DNA from: an uncultured Clostridia bacterium
GTDB taxonomy: Bacteria; Bacillota; Clostridia; Christensenellales; CAG-314
Length of the DNA stretch: 64,000 bases
Assembly: GCA_944364615.1 (NCBI GenBank)
Contig: CALVWF010000010.1
Coordinates: 1,388-65,387, forward strand
Direction of reading: 5' to 3'
Positions 23,031 through 47,946 of this stretch are shown piece after piece. The position numbers and the translations under genes were made by a program. Numbering within the stretch: position 1 is the stretch's first letter; the number at the start of each line of letters is the position of its first letter. Below the pieces are notes generated by a model that had not been told where the DNA came from, did no database searches, and was given only the letters and a program-made list of their open reading frames with translations.

Positions 23031-23705
23031 ATGGTAAACGTATTGCTTAATTATTACAATTTCCACGAAGACTGGGCATATAAAAATCTGTCGCCCTACA
23101 TCAGACCTGAATGTAAAGTCACAATTGTGCCTTACGCTTACAGAGATTACGAGGTGGCGTGTGACGCCGACTGGCAAAAACTGTACGGTCCAGACGGCGA
23201 AAAGTATCCCAATATAATTGCGCCATTCCTTGCATACGGAATAAGTGAAAAAAATATAAAGTGGGTGAACTTTTTTACCGATGACGGAGAATCTTCGCGC
23301 AGGAAAATAAGCAGTGCGGACATTTTGTTGTTTACGGGAGGACTTCCCGAAAAGATAACTCAACGTTTGCTTGAAAAAGGCATTACCGACGCAGTAAAAA
23401 ATTTCAAAGGCGTGTTGATGGGGGTATCGGCGGGCGCAATGTTTCAGTTGGAACGTTACCACATAACTCCCGACGAAGATTACGACAGTTACGGAATTTA
23501 TCACGGCATAGGATTGCTTGACGGATTTGATCTGGAAGTGCATTACACTCATTCGGAAATACAGCAACAGTGCACACAGCGCGCGTTAAAAGAATTGAAA
23601 TTGCCTGTGTATGCAATGTATCACTGCGGAGGTTTGCTCATTGCCGACGGACATATTACCGTAATGGGAGACGTGGACATTCACATAAACAAAGAACGCG
23701 GTTAA
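23031..23705 (+). CDS. Class I glutamine-amidotransferase-like / peptidase S51 family protein
   Basis: 'LFTGG', 'GVSAGA' nucleophile elbow, 'EVHY'. Confidence 0.75.
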   Translation: MVNVLLNYYNFHEDWAYKNLSPYIRPECKVTIVPYAYRDYEVACDADWQKLYGPDGEKYPNIIAPFLAYGISEKNIKWVNFFTDDGESSRRKISSADILLFTGGLPEKITQRLLEKGITDAVKNFKGVLMGVSAGAMFQLERYHITPDEDYDSYGIYHGIGLLDGFDLEVHYTHSEIQQQCTQRALKELKLPVYAMYHCGGLLIADGHITVMGDVDIHINKERG

Positions 23706-24108
23706 AGTCCGCTGTAAGACAACCGACGTTTGGTCACGGTTTGTATTTGCCGTACGTTGTTGACGGAATTAGGTGACTAAACGTCGCCTTTTGCTATTAT
23801 TGAATGCGGTTATATTTGCGCGACTCGACGGGAGGGAATGTCTGATGTCATTTCCGTATTTAATTGCCGTATTCTGTAAAAGATTATAATGCGTTCTGAA
23901 GGGTGCAAACTTCGGCATGAATTTAATGTATTGCCGTATGTACTGTGTCGCGGAATGCGCAACGCGTACGCGTCGGCATCATTGACAGTCTGTTGCCTAA
24001 CAGTAAAATAAACTGAAAGCATTTTTTTTGACCCGTAGTGTTGTTTTTTAAATATGAGTATGATATAATTTTTTCACGATACTAATGTGAAGGGTGGGAG
24101 TATACCTG

Positions 24109-24963
24109 ATGAAAACAAAAATTACTGCAGACAGCACATGCGATCTTCCTGTCGATCTGCAACAAAAATACGATGTTACGATAATGCCTTTGTATGTTTC
24201 GCTGGGCGAAAAAAATCTCGTGGACGGCGTAAGCATTTCCCCTGAAGATATCTACGAGTACTACGCCGATACTAAGAAACTTCCCAAGTCTGCCGCGCGC
24301 AGTCAGGCGGATTACTTCGATTTCTTCAAGCAGTTTACCGACGATGGGTACGCAATAGTGCATTTCTGCGTGTCGGAATCCATGAGCGTTTCCTACCACA
24401 ACGCGCTCGAAGCGTCCAAACAGTTTGACAATGTTTATGTGGTCAACACCGAAAGTCTGTCTACGGGTATGGCGTTGCAGGTGCTTTACGCCTGCGATCT
24501 CGTCGCGGAAGGCGCAACCGCCGAAGAAGTGTTTACCAAGGTCAAAAAGCGCATACCCGCAGTTCAGGCATCCTTTATACTGAACAATCTCGAATTTTTG
24601 TACAAGGGCGGAAGATGTTCTTCGCTTGCCTATCTGGGGGCAAATATGCTGGGAATAAAGCCGAGCATAGAAGTGCACGACGGAGCAATGGGCGTGGGCA
24701 AAAAGTATATCGGCCGTTTTGCGAGATGTCTGCGTAAATACGTTGAAGACACATTTGAAAAGTTTGACAATCCCGACAAGCGCAGATGTTTCGTCACACA
24801 CACCAAGATGGATCCCGAACTTGTGGAGCAGGTTGTGGAAATGGTAAAGCAAAAAGGTATCTTTAACGAAATACTCGAAACGACTGCCGGATGTACGATA
24901 ACAACACACTGCGGCGAAAGCACGTTGGGTGTTCTGTATATAAACGACGGCGGGGAAAACTAA
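24109..24963 (+). CDS. DegV-family fatty-acid-binding protein
   Basis: 'ITADSTCDLP', 'VVNTESLSTG', 'LYKGGRCS', 'KPSIEV', 'THCG'. Confidence 0.92.
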   Translation: MKTKITADSTCDLPVDLQQKYDVTIMPLYVSLGEKNLVDGVSISPEDIYEYYADTKKLPKSAARSQADYFDFFKQFTDDGYAIVHFCVSESMSVSYHNALEASKQFDNVYVVNTESLSTGMALQVLYACDLVAEGATAEEVFTKVKKRIPAVQASFILNNLEFLYKGGRCSSLAYLGANMLGIKPSIEVHDGAMGVGKKYIGRFARCLRKYVEDTFEKFDNPDKRRCFVTHTKMDPELVEQVVEMVKQKGIFNEILETTAGCTITTHCGESTLGVLYINDGGEN

Positions 24964-25192: not shown

Positions 25193-25222
25193 CCAACAAA
25201 AATCAAAAACCGTGTGTTTAAT
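25193..25222 (+). promoter_or_regulatory. Putative ECF-sigma promoter (copy 1)
   Basis: CCAACAAAA-N12-GTGTTTAAT, repeated with identical spacing at 27473. Confidence 0.6.
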
Positions 25223-25282
25223 AGTTGCAAACAGACAATTTATTGACACATTTACAGTGTAGCGACATTGGGGGAGAGCAAT

Positions 25283-25810
25283 GTGAACAGGGCTAAACTA
25301 AATAAATGTGTGTTACGCATTAAAGAGGGCGACGAACAGGCATTTGCCGAAATGTACGAAGCCACACGAAGAGGAGTCTTTTCTTACGTTTATTCCATAT
25401 TGCGCAATTTTGCCGTAGCGGAAGAGATAATGCAGGACACTTACATTAACGTAAAATTGAAGATAAGTACCTACAAGGAAGACACAAATTTTACGGCGTG
25501 GTTGTTGCAGATAGCCAAAAATCTGTCCTACAATTATCTGCGTAAAAGTAAACGTGAAACAGTTTCCGACGAAGCGGTGGTGAAAGCGGGCAAAAGTTAC
25601 TCTATACCCGATGAGGGGAAACCTGTAATTTCCGCAATGCGAAAGGTGCTCGGTCAGGAAGAGTTGCAGATAGTACTTTTGCACGTCGTTTCCGGCTACA
25701 AGCACCGTGAAATAGCGGAGTTTTTAGGCAAACCGCTGGGAACAGTGACCTGGACTTATAAAAATGCCGTCAGAAAAACCAGAGAATATCTTGAAAAGGA
25801 GGAAAAGTAA
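25283..25810 (+). CDS. ECF-type RNA polymerase sigma factor
   Basis: Regions 2 and 4: 'AEEIMQDTYI', 'FTAWLLQIAKN', 'GYKHREIAEFLGKPLGTV'. GTG start after SD GGGGGAG. Confidence 0.92.
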   Translation: MNRAKLNKCVLRIKEGDEQAFAEMYEATRRGVFSYVYSILRNFAVAEEIMQDTYINVKLKISTYKEDTNFTAWLLQIAKNLSYNYLRKSKRETVSDEAVVKAGKSYSIPDEGKPVISAMRKVLGQEELQIVLLHVVSGYKHREIAEFLGKPLGTVTWTYKNAVRKTREYLEKEEK

Positions 25811-27127
25811 TTGAAAAACAGAGATTTGTTCAAAAAACTCAATAAAGAATTCGATGAAGTTGTTCCTCCTATGTCGCAAAGGGTAAAGGAAGAGCCCATC
25901 AAAGTTGCCAAACAGGCAAAAACCGCTCAGACCGTTGCACCCGAAAAGACACAACGCAACGGCAGATTTTCCTTTACGTTCAGAGCGGTTGCCGTCGCAT
26001 GTTCCCTTTTGATCGTATTTGTGGCGTTGGCGGTAATAATTCCCAACGTAGGCTATAGGCAAAACGATACGTTTGTTTCCATGAAGATAAATCCCGAATT
26101 TTCATTAGTCGCCGACAGTAAAGGCAAGGTGGTAAACGTAGCGGCGGTAAACCGTGACGCGGAAGTGGTAATTTACGCTTTGAAAGAGGAAGGGCAGACG
26201 ATTGAAGACACCGACATCGAAGAGGCATTGGGACGTCTTGCTACCGTTTCCTATCGACTGGGCTACCGTGCCGACGGACAGATCAGTATTTCCGCGGTAA
26301 GCGTCAGAGGGGATGAGGCAACGGATGAAATATGTCGCTCGGCAAAGGCCGAAGTGGAAACATCCCTTGCCGACATTGCGCAAGTTACCGTCGACGCAGT
26401 GCGCGAAAGCGTCGAAGAACTGAAACAACGCGTTCAGACATTTGCCGACGACGTGCAAGACGATTTGCAATCGCTTGTTTCGGCAATGGCACGGCGCACC
26501 GATTATTTCGGCGAACTTGCCAAGCAGTTTGTGCAGAGCGGATTTGAAAGAGCGAAAATATCTCTTGCCTATACCGCCGATCTGCTGGAAAGTTACATCG
26601 ACACGCTGGAAATTCGTCAGCAGGCTATGTTCCGTTTGGAGGAAATAAACGACGCGATTTCGCAACGCAATTTGTCCTATCGGCAAGGAATACTGTTCAC
26701 GATAGTTTACGACGGATGGGATCTCGCCCAATATATAAGTTACGGCAACGAGGCGGACGAACAGACTGAGGCATTGTACGCTGAGTTTAACGCTCAGTTG
26801 CAGTTTATGGAAAAGGCAGGTCTTGTCGCTACCGAAACTCAGTATATTTCGGACAGGCTGCTGTATTCCGCGGTGGATTTTCAATCATTGCGTGAGGCTA
26901 TGGACAAAATCGAGCGGTTCGTGTGGGATATTGCCGACACTTTATCCTCGGAATTGCAGTCGTTGATCGATCTTACGGTATCCACATTGCTTGCCGGTTT
27001 CAGCGACGAATGGTCTGCCTTGTCGCAATCGGCCGAACAGGTGACTAATGCCGACAGTTACGTAAGCAGTATGTCACAACTTGTCGTTAAAGAATACCAA
27101 TTGCGCAAATCGCTTTATAGCAACTGA
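25811..27127 (+). CDS. Anti-sigma factor with an RsgI-like extracytoplasmic domain
   Basis: Directly follows the sigma gene. Short cytoplasmic N-terminus, one TM, then 'VSMKINPEFSLVADSKGKVVNVAAVNRDA'. Confidence 0.75.
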   Translation: MKNRDLFKKLNKEFDEVVPPMSQRVKEEPIKVAKQAKTAQTVAPEKTQRNGRFSFTFRAVAVACSLLIVFVALAVIIPNVGYRQNDTFVSMKINPEFSLVADSKGKVVNVAAVNRDAEVVIYALKEEGQTIEDTDIEEALGRLATVSYRLGYRADGQISISAVSVRGDEATDEICRSAKAEVETSLADIAQVTVDAVRESVEELKQRVQTFADDVQDDLQSLVSAMARRTDYFGELAKQFVQSGFERAKISLAYTADLLESYIDTLEIRQQAMFRLEEINDAISQRNLSYRQGILFTIVYDGWDLAQYISYGNEADEQTEALYAEFNAQLQFMEKAGLVATETQYISDRLLYSAVDFQSLREAMDKIERFVWDIADTLSSELQSLIDLTVSTLLAGFSDEWSALSQSAEQVTNADSYVSSMSQLVVKEYQLRKSLYSN

Positions 27128-27133
27128 ACAAAT

Positions 27134-27163
27134 GCCCGCTGTAAAAATGCGGGCGTTTTTTTT
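27134..27163 (+). terminator. Rho-independent terminator
   Basis: GCCCGC / GCGGGC stem followed by a T-run. Confidence 0.75.
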
Positions 27164-27472
27164 ATGCTGTTTTTTGCTTTAAAAATCGCAACTGTACGAT
27201 TTGCGTTTTATGAGGTAATTGCGTAATACTCGGTGTAAAAAGTAAAAATTGTGTTTGTGTTGCGAGGTGACGTCACATTCCGCTTCTATTTCATCGATGA
27301 GTGTATTTCGGACGGTAATTGCCCGATTCGGGCGCAATAAAAATAAAGGCGTATCTTTAAAAGCGTTTGTTAAATGTCACAGCGTTGAAATCGATTTACC
27401 TGTTTTTGAAGGTAAAATTTCAAGTTTTGCGTGGCGTCGGCTCAAATAAAATTTAAAAATTTTCTGAAATTG

Positions 27473-27502
27473 CCAATAAAACCTGATTTTGCCGTGTTTA
27501 AT
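27473..27502 (+). promoter_or_regulatory. Putative ECF-sigma promoter (copy 2)
   Basis: CCAATAAAA-N12-GTGTTTAAT, 63 bp before the lipoprotein start. Confidence 0.6.
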
Positions 27503-27565
27503 GGGTGAAAATACGTTCAAAGTGTTGCAGCAAGTGGCACAGAGAACTTAAAAGGAGATAATACC

Positions 27566-28945
27566 ATGAAAAAGACAGCAATGATTTTGGCAGTAGTGAT
27601 TTTGTCTTTAAGCGTTCTTGCGGTAGCCACAGGTTGCAATCCGACTGAAGCGCAGGCAGAAAGTTACGTTGTGGTGGACATAAACCCGTCGGTGGAGTTC
27701 GTGCTGGATTCAGACAATAAAGTTTTGTCCGTCAAAGCGGTAAACGAAGATGCACAGGTAATGCTGTACGGCGAAAAAGGTATAATAGGACTTAGTGTAG
27801 AAGACGCATCCCGTCGTATTGCCGAACTTGCGGTTGAATACAAGTACGTAAAGGAAGACGCAACGATAAGCGTCACCGTTACGGGTAAAAATCACAATAC
27901 CGAAGACAGCATTTACGCTCATATCGAAGCGGGATTCCTTCCGGTGTTCGACAAGACGGACCTCGAAGTTGCTCTTACCAGAACAGCCAATATTATGTAC
28001 GAAAAACGTCTGGAAATGCTTAAACAGCGTTACCCCGACAACGCCGACATTCAGGCAATGGATTCTGCGAAGTTGCGCCTTGTAGACGCAGCGATGCTTG
28101 CGGATTTCTCACTTGACCTTGAAGAAGCGGCGGCTATGACAAACGAGCAACTTGCCGCGGTTGTGTCAGAGGCTCACGAAAAATACAGCACGATGATACG
28201 TGCGGTAGCGGAAACTGTTTATGACGCAGCGGTGGCAACCTATGAAAATGCAGTGCAGACAGCGTTGGACAGTGCATATATTACCGTAAGTCTTGTCAAC
28301 GGTACGAGATATTCCGCTTTGCGTGCGGCACACCGCAGTATACTGACAATTGCCGAGGCGGCGGAAAAGTTGGCGCAACTGACGGGAATTACCGACGAAC
28401 AGATAGAAGAAATCGGACGTCAACTGCAACTGGAAGGTGAAAAACTTACTCAGTTTGTGGAAGAAGTAAAGAATCAGGGCAGTCAGTCTGTTGTGGAAAG
28501 CGTCAATTATGTTGTAGACAGAATGTATGCCAATATGACCGACAGCGAAAAAGAAGCGTGGGATCAATACGTTGAAAACGCTCAGGCAACGCTCGATCTG
28601 TACAGACAGGAAATAGAAGAAATTGACAGTAGCGTCAAGTCACAGTTGAAGGCAGCGCTGGCGCTGGTGGAAGGATTTACCGGACTGGATTTCAGCGAAA
28701 TAAACACCTTTGCCGATTTCTATAATCAGGTACTGGACGCAATGGAAAACAAGATTGCCGAACTGGAACAGTGGTTTGAAGAAAATCTGACGGCGGAAGA
28801 GAAGCAAAAGGTAGCCGAATTGCAGGAAAAAATGTCCGACACAATAGAAAAAGCGGAACAGACTCTGAACAACGCTATCGAGCAACTCAGACAGGAAGCG
28901 GAAGAATTCTTCACAGCCAAACAGCAAGAAAGATTGTCAGCCTGA
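27566..28945 (+). CDS. Lipoprotein with an RsgI-like domain and a helical C-terminal region
   Basis: Signal peptide with lipobox ...VATG-C24, then 'YVVVDINPSVEFVLDSDNKVLSVKAVNEDA'. Confidence 0.75.
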   Translation: MKKTAMILAVVILSLSVLAVATGCNPTEAQAESYVVVDINPSVEFVLDSDNKVLSVKAVNEDAQVMLYGEKGIIGLSVEDASRRIAELAVEYKYVKEDATISVTVTGKNHNTEDSIYAHIEAGFLPVFDKTDLEVALTRTANIMYEKRLEMLKQRYPDNADIQAMDSAKLRLVDAAMLADFSLDLEEAAAMTNEQLAAVVSEAHEKYSTMIRAVAETVYDAAVATYENAVQTALDSAYITVSLVNGTRYSALRAAHRSILTIAEAAEKLAQLTGITDEQIEEIGRQLQLEGEKLTQFVEEVKNQGSQSVVESVNYVVDRMYANMTDSEKEAWDQYVENAQATLDLYRQEIEEIDSSVKSQLKAALALVEGFTGLDFSEINTFADFYNQVLDAMENKIAELEQWFEENLTAEEKQKVAELQEKMSDTIEKAEQTLNNAIEQLRQEAEEFFTAKQQERLSA

Positions 28946-29132
28946 ATACAACATTCCCTCCCTGAAATATTCAAGTTGTATTACGGCAACAATATACCGA
29001 CTCTTGGGCGTAAAGTGGTGTACGTCTGCTCTCCCCCTCTCAACGTAATGTAAATTACGAGTAATTATTCGTTTAAACCACTTTAAACGGACACACGCTC
29101 GTTCCGGCAGGAACGGGCGTGCGTTTTTATTA
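28946..29132 (+). ncRNA. Candidate structured 3'-UTR or small RNA with C-rich loops, ending in a terminator
   Basis: Stems at 28945-52/28975-82, 29011-19/29077-85 and 29021-25/29043-47. Terminator stem at 29094-105/29110-121 followed by a T-run. Confidence 0.45.
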
Positions 29133-29221
29133 TATGGCAAACGATCGGTCGTTTGTGCTGAATTACAGAACGTGACAGTCTTTTCCGTTTCAGGCAGTAC
29201 TGCGTTCTGTCGGTTAGTTTG

Positions 29222-47681: not shown

Positions 47682-47782
47682 CGGCATTTTTAATTAAAAA
47701 CAGCGTTAAAATTGTTGCAATTGAATGACTGTTGTGCTATCATATAGGCGGTTGGAACAACCGACCGAAATTTAATATTTAC

Positions 47783-47897
47783 ATTCTTTGGGGCGTGGTG
47801 CAATTCCACACCGATAGTTAAAGTCTATGAACAACCTTTGGGTTGCCGAGCAGGTGAAATTCCTGCACCGACAGTACAGTCTGGATGGGAAAAGAAT
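47783..47897 (+). ncRNA. FMN riboswitch (RFN element)
   Basis: GGGGCGTGGTGCAATTCCACACCG...GGTGAAATTCC...CCGACAGTACAGTCTGGATGGGAAAAGAAT, lying upstream of an ECF S-component gene. Confidence 0.95.
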
Positions 47898-47946
47898 CGT
47901 AATGATACAGTCTTGCCTTTACAAGGCGTTTGAACCGTGTCATTTT

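Follow-up and report, generated by a model that had tools for sequence, protein, structure and literature searches.

A 3'UTR element complementary to the ribosome-binding site of a sigma factor mRNA suggests an RNA brake on ECF-type sigma/SEAL anti-sigma modules of gut Clostridia

The 3'UTR of a SEAL-domain lipoprotein gene from an uncultured Clostridia bacterium contains a C/U-rich stretch that is the perfect complement, over 11 nt, of a nearby sigma factor gene's Shine-Dalgarno (SD) region. The stretch is predicted to be exposed, and matches of the same kind, each with a sequence of its own, recur in distantly related lineages. Together, these features suggest an RNA brake on the sigma factor. 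We regard it as probable that the 3'UTR carries an anti-SD element that exerts negative feedback on translation of the sigma factor.

The window, that is, the whole stretch of 64,000 nt that was analyzed, belongs to contig 10 of a 1.69-Mb genome in 14 contigs. Among the genomes compared, the sole genus-mate is Candidatus Limihabitans stercoravium (Clostridia). The gene row around the 3'UTR consists of the following features.

23031-23705: S51 peptidase gene, the first in the conserved gene row.
Ending at 24963: DegV gene, between the S51 peptidase and sigma genes.
25283-25810, + strand: gene for an ECF-type sigma factor of 175 aa with a GTG start (Pfam Sigma70_r2, 8e-14; Sigma70_r4_2, 3e-06).
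25811-27127, + strand: gene for an RsgI-like (SEAL-domain) membrane anti-sigma factor (Pfam RsgI_M, 5e-12).
27134-27164, + strand: intrinsic terminator after the anti-sigma gene, read from the sequence as GCCCGC...GCGGGC followed by T9.
27566-28945, + strand: gene for a SEAL/RsgI_M-domain lipoprotein, to which the studied 3'UTR belongs (Pfam RsgI_M, 1.3e-18).

Homologues of the sigma factor begin at the aligned position that matches the GTG start at 25283. The translated anti-sigma factor contains a transmembrane segment and a KINPE motif, and the lipoprotein has a signal peptide, a VATGC lipobox and a DINPS motif. The spacer between the anti-sigma and lipoprotein genes is 438 nt long. The 187-nt stretch under study (28946-29132) runs from the stop codon of the lipoprotein gene (28945) to a strong terminator at 29094-29130, and the gene beyond this terminator is convergent. 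The order of a sigma gene (Sigma70_r2 and r4_2) followed by a gene for an RsgI_M membrane protein is kept in more than 15 loci, and in the sister species gene order and flank synteny are retained. Elsewhere in the window, an ordinary known element, a full-length FMN riboswitch (RF00050, 102.8 bits), is situated at 47780-47900 on the + strand and overlaps the start of an ORF beginning at 47827.

Two copies of a bipartite motif mark candidate promoters of the sigma factor.

25193-25223, + strand: candidate sigma-dependent promoter P1, upstream of the sigma gene, identified by its motif CCAACAAA-N15-GTTTAATA.
27473-27503, + strand: P2, upstream of the lipoprotein gene, the second copy of the motif, CCAATAAA-N15-GTTTAATG, with the same spacing as P1.

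Both strands of the 1.69-Mb genome were scanned with the pattern C[CA]A[AC]YAAA-N10-18-GTTTAAT[AG]. The motif CCAAYAAA-N15-GTTTAAT, which we take to be unlike the described SigI promoters, has exactly two copies in the genome, 5' of the sigma gene and 5' of the lipoprotein gene. It also precedes the sigma gene and the third gene in lineages L005, L010, L011, L049 and L053. Within this genome, the conserved motif seems to define a regulon of two promoters. Because the sigma and lipoprotein genes are both situated behind this rare motif, the 3'UTR most likely belongs to an mRNA of the sigma factor's own small regulon, a dependence read from the motif. On the + strand between 28600 and 29100 there is no promoter-like site and no third copy of the sigma motif. 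The stretch thus has the layout of a 3'UTR-derived sRNA, positioned between stop codon and terminator and lacking a promoter of its own. Written as [CG]CAAYAAA-N15-GTTTAAT[AG], the motif is found in L059 and L126-L132 as well, and some lineages have GCAACAAA as the upstream half. In L131 (about 327-333), the -10-like GTTTAATA ends a few nucleotides before the ATG, so this mRNA may be leaderless. The sigma homologue of L129 aligns from an ATA codon (about 332) located behind a good SD, which is a possible non-canonical start.

The 3'UTR was folded as a 196-nt sequence. The predicted structure has an energy of -55.9 kcal/mol and is more stable than shuffled sequences (z = -4.0). This stability comes mostly from the first stem-loop and the terminator, because the middle fragment on its own is not significantly structured (z = -1.5). 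The elements of the 3'UTR are as follows.

28945-28982, + strand: stem-loop 1, an 8-bp stem AATACAAC/GTTGTATT (28945-52/28975-82) with the 22-nt loop AUUCCCUCCCUGAAAUAUUCAA, present in the minimum free energy (MFE) and centroid folds.
29012-29085, + strand: outer stem of 9 bp, TAAAGTGGT/ACCACTTTA (29012-20/29077-85), around the CU-rich region, predicted by both the MFE and the centroid fold when the full 3'UTR is used.
29027-29037, + strand: candidate anti-SD element UGCUCUCCCCC within the loop CUGCUCUCCCCCUCUCA (loop 2), an 11-nt perfect complement of the sigma SD.
29094-29130, + strand: intrinsic terminator closing the 3'UTR, whose 12-bp stem contains 8 GC pairs and carries a 4-nt loop, with a T run behind it; the MFE fold includes it.

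The strong closing terminator had been noticed in the initial annotation of this DNA, which also placed loop 2 in a hairpin inside the outer stem. The arms of that hairpin, TACGT/ACGTA at 29021-25 and 29043-47, are present in the sequence and the 9-bp outer stem exists, but the 5-bp inner hairpin is not part of the MFE fold. The structure around loop 2 is not robust; the outer stem is lost when the isolated fragment is folded, and it is not predicted for the sister species. The CU-rich core itself (29031-43) is about 90% unpaired in the ensemble. A search of 28946-29132 against Rfam returned no family at the gathering threshold nor at E values up to 10, and the only match nearby was a weak antisense one to SurA (E = 2.6, 13.8 bits against a threshold of 100). 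A repeat or mobile element was rejected, as a short-word BLAST search of the whole genome with the 3'UTR and the two spacers gave only chance 14-19-mers. Also rejected as coding was a 67-aa ORF on the minus strand (28937-29140), for which the alignment with the sister species consists only of short blocks separated by indels of about 28, 16 and 11 nt.

The predicted target of loop 2 is situated directly upstream of the sigma start codon.

25270-25280, + strand: SD region of the sigma gene, GGGGGAGAGCA, ending 2 nt before the in-frame GTG at 25283.

The letters confirm the pairing described in the initial annotation: TGCTCTCCCCC (29027-37) matches the reverse complement of GGGGGAGAGCA exactly over 11 nt. 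Neither pairing word occurs a second time in the 1.69-Mb genome. There is no similarity flanking the 11-mer, so an origin by duplication was rejected. The sigma SD is predicted to be displayed in the 8-nt loop of a CAUUG/CAAUG hairpin. A genome-wide target ranking, one of the checks proposed along with the annotation, was performed by comparing the 17-nt loop 2 with the approximately 1,495 translation start regions that a crude gene caller delimits in this genome. The sigma start region ranked first, with a duplex energy of -25.3 kcal/mol, compared with a mean of -9.4 kcal/mol (sd 3.6). The margin is small, since the runner-up reaches -23.8 kcal/mol. The start region of the lipoprotein gene itself is absent from the top targets. 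No theme unites the others near the top, among them those of membrane proteins, a MutL-like protein, an ABC permease and a methyltransferase.

The annotation had put the naive expectation for such matches at about 0.03 for an 11-mer and 0.008 for a 12-mer, which proved too optimistic. When random 187-nt segments from this genome were examined and all words counted, 22% had two or more matches in reverse complement, each at least 11 nt long and no more than 6 kb away on either side, and 12% had one of at least 12 nt in the same range. Because 22% of random segments match in this way, the length of the match alone proves nothing in the window.

A second pairing had been proposed for stem-loop 1, with the following partner.

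23830-23841, + strand: 12-nt partner of loop 1, GGGAGGGAATGT, with a 14-codon ORF behind it at 23845-23889.

The 8-bp stem is real, and ACATTCCCTCCC (28951-62), a word that is unique in the 1.69-Mb genome, does complement 23830-41 over 12 nt. The C-rich stretch of the loop (28955-63) has a mean unpaired probability of 0.87. The partner, however, is not the SD of any gene of annotated size, having only the 14-codon ORF behind it, and a match of this length is within chance expectation. A portion of about 200 nt of the spacer between the S51 peptidase and DegV genes, which includes 23830-41, is missing from the sister species, and stem-loop 1 is likewise missing there. With loop and partner both lacking in the sister species, and only a 14-codon ORF behind the partner in the window, the claim that loop 1 covers an SD is unsupported. 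Loop 1 also found no outstanding target among the approximately 1,495 start regions. A similar loop, CCCUCCCAGAAA, occurs in L057. The stretch that holds the partner (23790-23990), which the sister species lacks, occurs once in the genome and folds strongly, at -58.7 kcal/mol per 201 nt. Within it, GGAGG and 9 nt precede the ATG of the 14-codon ORF (MSFPYLIAVFCKRL, 23845-23889); the one SNP seen in another strain is synonymous. Short-word BLAST against the whole genome showed that the stretch is not a repeat.

Close relatives provide a view of how the element of loop 2 changes over short distances. A DNA search in 60 relatives aligned only the coding part, and only in the one genus-mate. The 3'UTR of the sister species is mostly unalignable; what is kept is GTAAAGTGGTGTAC, followed by a CU-rich tract, ACUCUCUCUCU, and then AACCACT. 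The sigma SD of the sister species, GAGGGAG, can pair with CUCUCUC of this tract over 7-8 bp, and a change from G to A in the SD has its counterpart in a change from C to U in the tract. In lineages L011 and L080, whose proteins are 88% identical, AAUCUCUCCU is kept in both while the neighboring sequence diverges. This word is the complement of the sigma SD AGGAGAGAUU over 10 nt in L011 and 11 nt in L080. In L095, related to L049 at 63%, the anti-SD is another 9-nt word, and AUUCCCUCU pairs with AGAGGGAAU. In L049, as in its 89% relatives, a duplex of about 13 bp with a bulge is found; a search of a genome collection for relatives of the L049 genome returned none. Four of the closest sigma homologues (L077, L079, L082 and L083) show no clear complementarity.

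Both members of the L011/L080 pair also have a hairpin GUAAUU-GGGG-AAUUAC with a G4 loop in the sigma 5'UTR (about 1128-1143 in L011) and a hairpin CCAACAAU-CCCCCUAU-AUUGUUGG with a C5 loop in the 3'UTR (4543-4566 in L011). A loop-loop contact between them, besides the linear pairing of 10-11 nt, is possible.

The comparison was extended to loci that contain this type of sigma gene with one or two SEAL-domain genes, taken from metagenome assemblies and species-representative genomes. Removal of near-duplicates left 29 lineages. For each, we took the 100 nt past the point where the last SEAL gene stops and searched them for the longest perfect Watson-Crick complement to the region around the cognate sigma start (positions -25 to +8). 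Inspection of the first 19 lineages preceded the choice of 9 nt as the minimum length. A cognate complement of at least 9 nt is present in 7 of the 29 lineages, and all seven sequences are different. They are listed with their positions relative to the sigma start.

Window (discovery locus): 11 nt, -13 to -3.
L011: 10 nt, -13 to -4 (11 nt in its relative L080).
L095: 9 nt, -16 to -8.
G301: 9 nt, -6 to +2, AU-rich and situated over the start codon rather than the SD.
L127: 10 nt, -24 to -15, inside a terminator stem and the weakest case.
L130: 9 nt, -5 to +3.
L135: 11 nt, -8 to +2, complementary to the stretch from SD to start codon and exposed in the loop (22 nt) of a hairpin with 7 bp.

The remaining lineages, about three quarters, show no clear complementarity. 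Complements of at least 9 nt arise at a background rate of 1.46% when all start regions of this genome are used (a single genome, with genes called crudely). The rate is 0.74% for 812 non-cognate pairs and 2.3% for 1,553 further 33-nt windows taken from these sigma loci. Of 55 offsets, the one at the sigma start region scores highest. When the window is left out, 6 of 28 lineages remain, which corresponds to a binomial p of 2.8e-6 at the 1.46% background and, by our own estimate, to a p of about 6e-5 at the within-locus rate of 2.3%; none of 100,000 shuffles reached 6 of 28. Overall, we place p for this count at about 1e-5 to 6e-5. The last nine lineages, collected once rule and threshold had been fixed, contributed three of the cases (3/9).

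An energy-based permutation test gave p = 8e-5 overall and 1.1e-3 without the window. An earlier energy test restricted to the first 19 lineages gave marginal values, with p = 0.024 for all of them and 0.097 once the window was left out; it took the exact-match statistic and further lineages for the signal to become clear. The enrichment is confined to the reverse-complement orientation, with 7 cases, whereas the direct, reverse-only and complement-only orientations have 1 each. Covariation of loop and SD across related genomes, another check proposed in advance, is therefore seen in cognate pairs at 7/29 against 0.7-2.3%, and in the pairing orientation only. C-rich heptamers free of G are present in 12 of these 29 3'UTRs, compared with 6.5% of gene-downstream regions. 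A secondary excess of 3'UTR complements was observed about 240 nt upstream of the sigma start (index -7 of the 33-nt windows, about -256 to -224) in 4 of 28 lineages, namely L077, L082, L081 and L127. A/T runs of neighboring terminators pairing with the 3'UTR terminator are a possible source of this excess.

The mechanism that we propose is as follows. Active sigma factor would transcribe two units from like promoters, the sigma/anti-sigma operon and the lipoprotein gene with its 3'UTR. The 3'UTR would end in the strong terminator and present the unpaired C/U-rich segment CUGCUCUCCCCCUCUCA, which would form 11 consecutive base pairs with the sigma mRNA's SD. The acting form may be the whole mRNA or a processed 3' fragment protected by the terminator. 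Pairing would block binding of the 30S subunit, and possibly create a substrate for RNase III, so that synthesis of the sigma factor would be damped in proportion to its activity. The outcome would be negative feedback at the RNA level on a positively autoregulated sigma factor. That the region is transcribed, that the RNA is stable, that the pairing takes place in the cell and that its effect is repression, we infer from the sequence. A feedback loop of this kind had been put forward in the initial annotation. For loop 2 it is backed by the shared promoter motif, the target rank and the complements in 6 of 28 other lineages, while loop 1 drops out of it.

Across lineages, the anti-SD feature would be gained and lost, or re-matched, one lineage at a time. 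Whether ECF-type sigma/SEAL anti-sigma modules of this mostly uncultured order of gut Clostridia repeatedly evolve such an mRNA-to-mRNA brake, with the 3'UTR of the last regulon gene re-matched to the ribosome-binding site of the sigma gene, is a broader claim that we judge to be evenly balanced.

A close known counterpart in mechanism is the icaR 3'UTR of Staphylococcus aureus, in which a 7-nt UCCCCUG motif is sufficient to block the SD UAGGGGG; the pairing blocks the initiation complex and makes an RNase III substrate, and may operate in cis or in trans (PMC3868564). As in icaR, loop 2 is a C-rich motif in the 3'UTR of a Firmicute that is complementary to a G-rich SD. The target of icaR is the SD of its own gene, whereas here it is the SD of the sigma factor that probably transcribes the mRNA. 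The sigma SD and the 3'UTR are not on the same mRNA in the window, where the terminator at 27134-64 and the promoter copy at 27473 intervene; the target is normally on a separate transcription unit, and lineages with two genes, such as L135, fit the same-mRNA feature of icaR. The complement found here is also longer (11 nt), and there is no sequence homology.

Firmicute sRNAs of the RsaE/RoxS type bind G-rich SD regions through unpaired C-rich loop motifs that are followed by a terminator (PMC6158497). The 3'UTR described here similarly displays an unpaired C-rich motif in a loop ahead of a terminator, but it has no Rfam match and its sequence is lineage-specific rather than conserved. It has no promoter of its own, so the element is part of an mRNA 3'UTR, unlike RsaE/RoxS. 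In Rhodobacter sphaeroides, the 3'UTR-derived sRNA UdsC binds the 5'UTR of rpoHII (PMC9779115). The circuit logic is similar, and this too is RNA from the 3'UTR of a protein-coding mRNA directed at the 5'UTR of an alternative sigma mRNA, although in an alphaproteobacterium, with another sigma family and without the C-rich anti-SD logic. Sigma/anti-sigma modules of the SigI/RsgI type use an autoproteolytic SEAL domain (PMC10328401, bioRxiv 10.1101/2023.06.27.546760). The anti-sigma factor and the lipoprotein described here share the RsgI_M/SEAL domain and its N-P motif, but the sigma factor differs in having ECF-like r2 and r4_2 domains. A literature search found no paper on RNA-level control of SigI/ECF-SEAL modules.

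The element also resembles enterobacterial envelope-stress sRNAs in that RNA output of a regulon would feed back negatively on the response. Negative feedback of this kind is exerted by CpxQ, which is cut from the 3'UTR of a regulon mRNA (cpxP), and by the sigmaE-dependent RybB, MicA and MicL. These sRNAs act through Hfq on porin or lipoprotein mRNAs and not on the ribosome-binding site of the sigma factor itself.

Among the alternatives, it is unlikely that the pairing is real but has another effect, either as a 5'-3' contact in read-through or two-gene transcripts that stabilizes the mRNA or activates translation, or as an RsaE-like C-rich regulator or sponge of many G-rich SDs. Where the module has two genes, as in L135, one mRNA carries both the sigma start region and the 3'UTR, and the icaR interaction may itself occur in cis or in trans (PMC3868564). 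The two C-rich motifs of the window, the C-rich motifs in 12 of 29 lineages and the several other start regions that score nearly as high for loop 2 would suit a regulator of many targets. Against these points, the SD or the start codon is covered in six of the seven strong cases, which predicts occlusion rather than activation; the complement tracks the sigma sequence of each lineage and not a generic SD, and the remaining top predicted targets are functionally heterogeneous.

We consider it quite improbable that the complementarity is due to chance, in an ordinary 3'UTR whose hairpins and terminator are incidental and whose C-rich match to an SD is accidental and without a regulatory function in this bacterium. 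The finding was picked post hoc, C-rich tracts can pair with any SD, and random segments yield comparable matches at the rate given above. The small margin over other start regions and the many related lineages without the feature point the same way. Chance does not readily explain why the best of 1,495 targets is the very sigma gene that shares the promoter motif, why cognate complementarity is enriched 10- to 30-fold elsewhere, with independent sequences and in the pairing orientation only, or why the CU tract is retained in the sister species.

A DNA-level inverted repeat around the sigma module, for instance a protein-binding or recombination site, is very hard to credit: complementary words do bracket the sigma/anti-sigma/lipoprotein cassette, and perfect matches fit a function in DNA or RNA equally, but the left word is situated between promoter and start codon, so that a mobile unit would lose its promoter, flank synteny is retained in the sister species, similarity does not extend past 11 nt and there are no repeat copies elsewhere, G-U pairs or bulges are needed in L005, L049 and L135, and the 3' words fall in RNA loops that are predicted to be single-stranded.

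Sigma factors of the ECF and SigI-like kinds switch on their own genes, and the only restraint on them known to us is that of their anti-sigma proteins. If the anti-SD reading is true, the 3'UTR would provide a second layer of control, proportional to output, and a dedicated RNA arm of negative feedback that needs no separate sRNA gene. We know of only a handful of cases of 3'UTR-mediated anti-SD control so far, in staphylococci and bacilli; it would be extended to the sigma circuits of uncultured gut Clostridia and might represent a general, evolutionarily labile design principle for autoregulated alternative sigma factors. The lineage-specific co-variation offers a ready set of natural compensatory pairs, and the comparison of regulon 3'UTRs with regulator start regions can be applied to other regulators.

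Further observations were made on the 3'UTRs and neighbors of the module. In L044, L046 and L047, three species of one genus, an identical 31-nt block, TCAAGCCATAACCTAATCCCACACAACTTACA, follows directly after the stop codon, and the terminators are completely different. The sigma gene is unlinked in these species, and the pairing to its start region is only weak. In L008 (7982-10506) and L080 (9846-10247), HSP20 (and HSP90) genes are located 3' of the SEAL-lipoprotein gene. The L008 lipoprotein gene has a sigma-type promoter and no adjacent sigma gene. The HSP20/HSP90 neighbors in two distant lineages are a hint that the module could be connected with heat or envelope stress.
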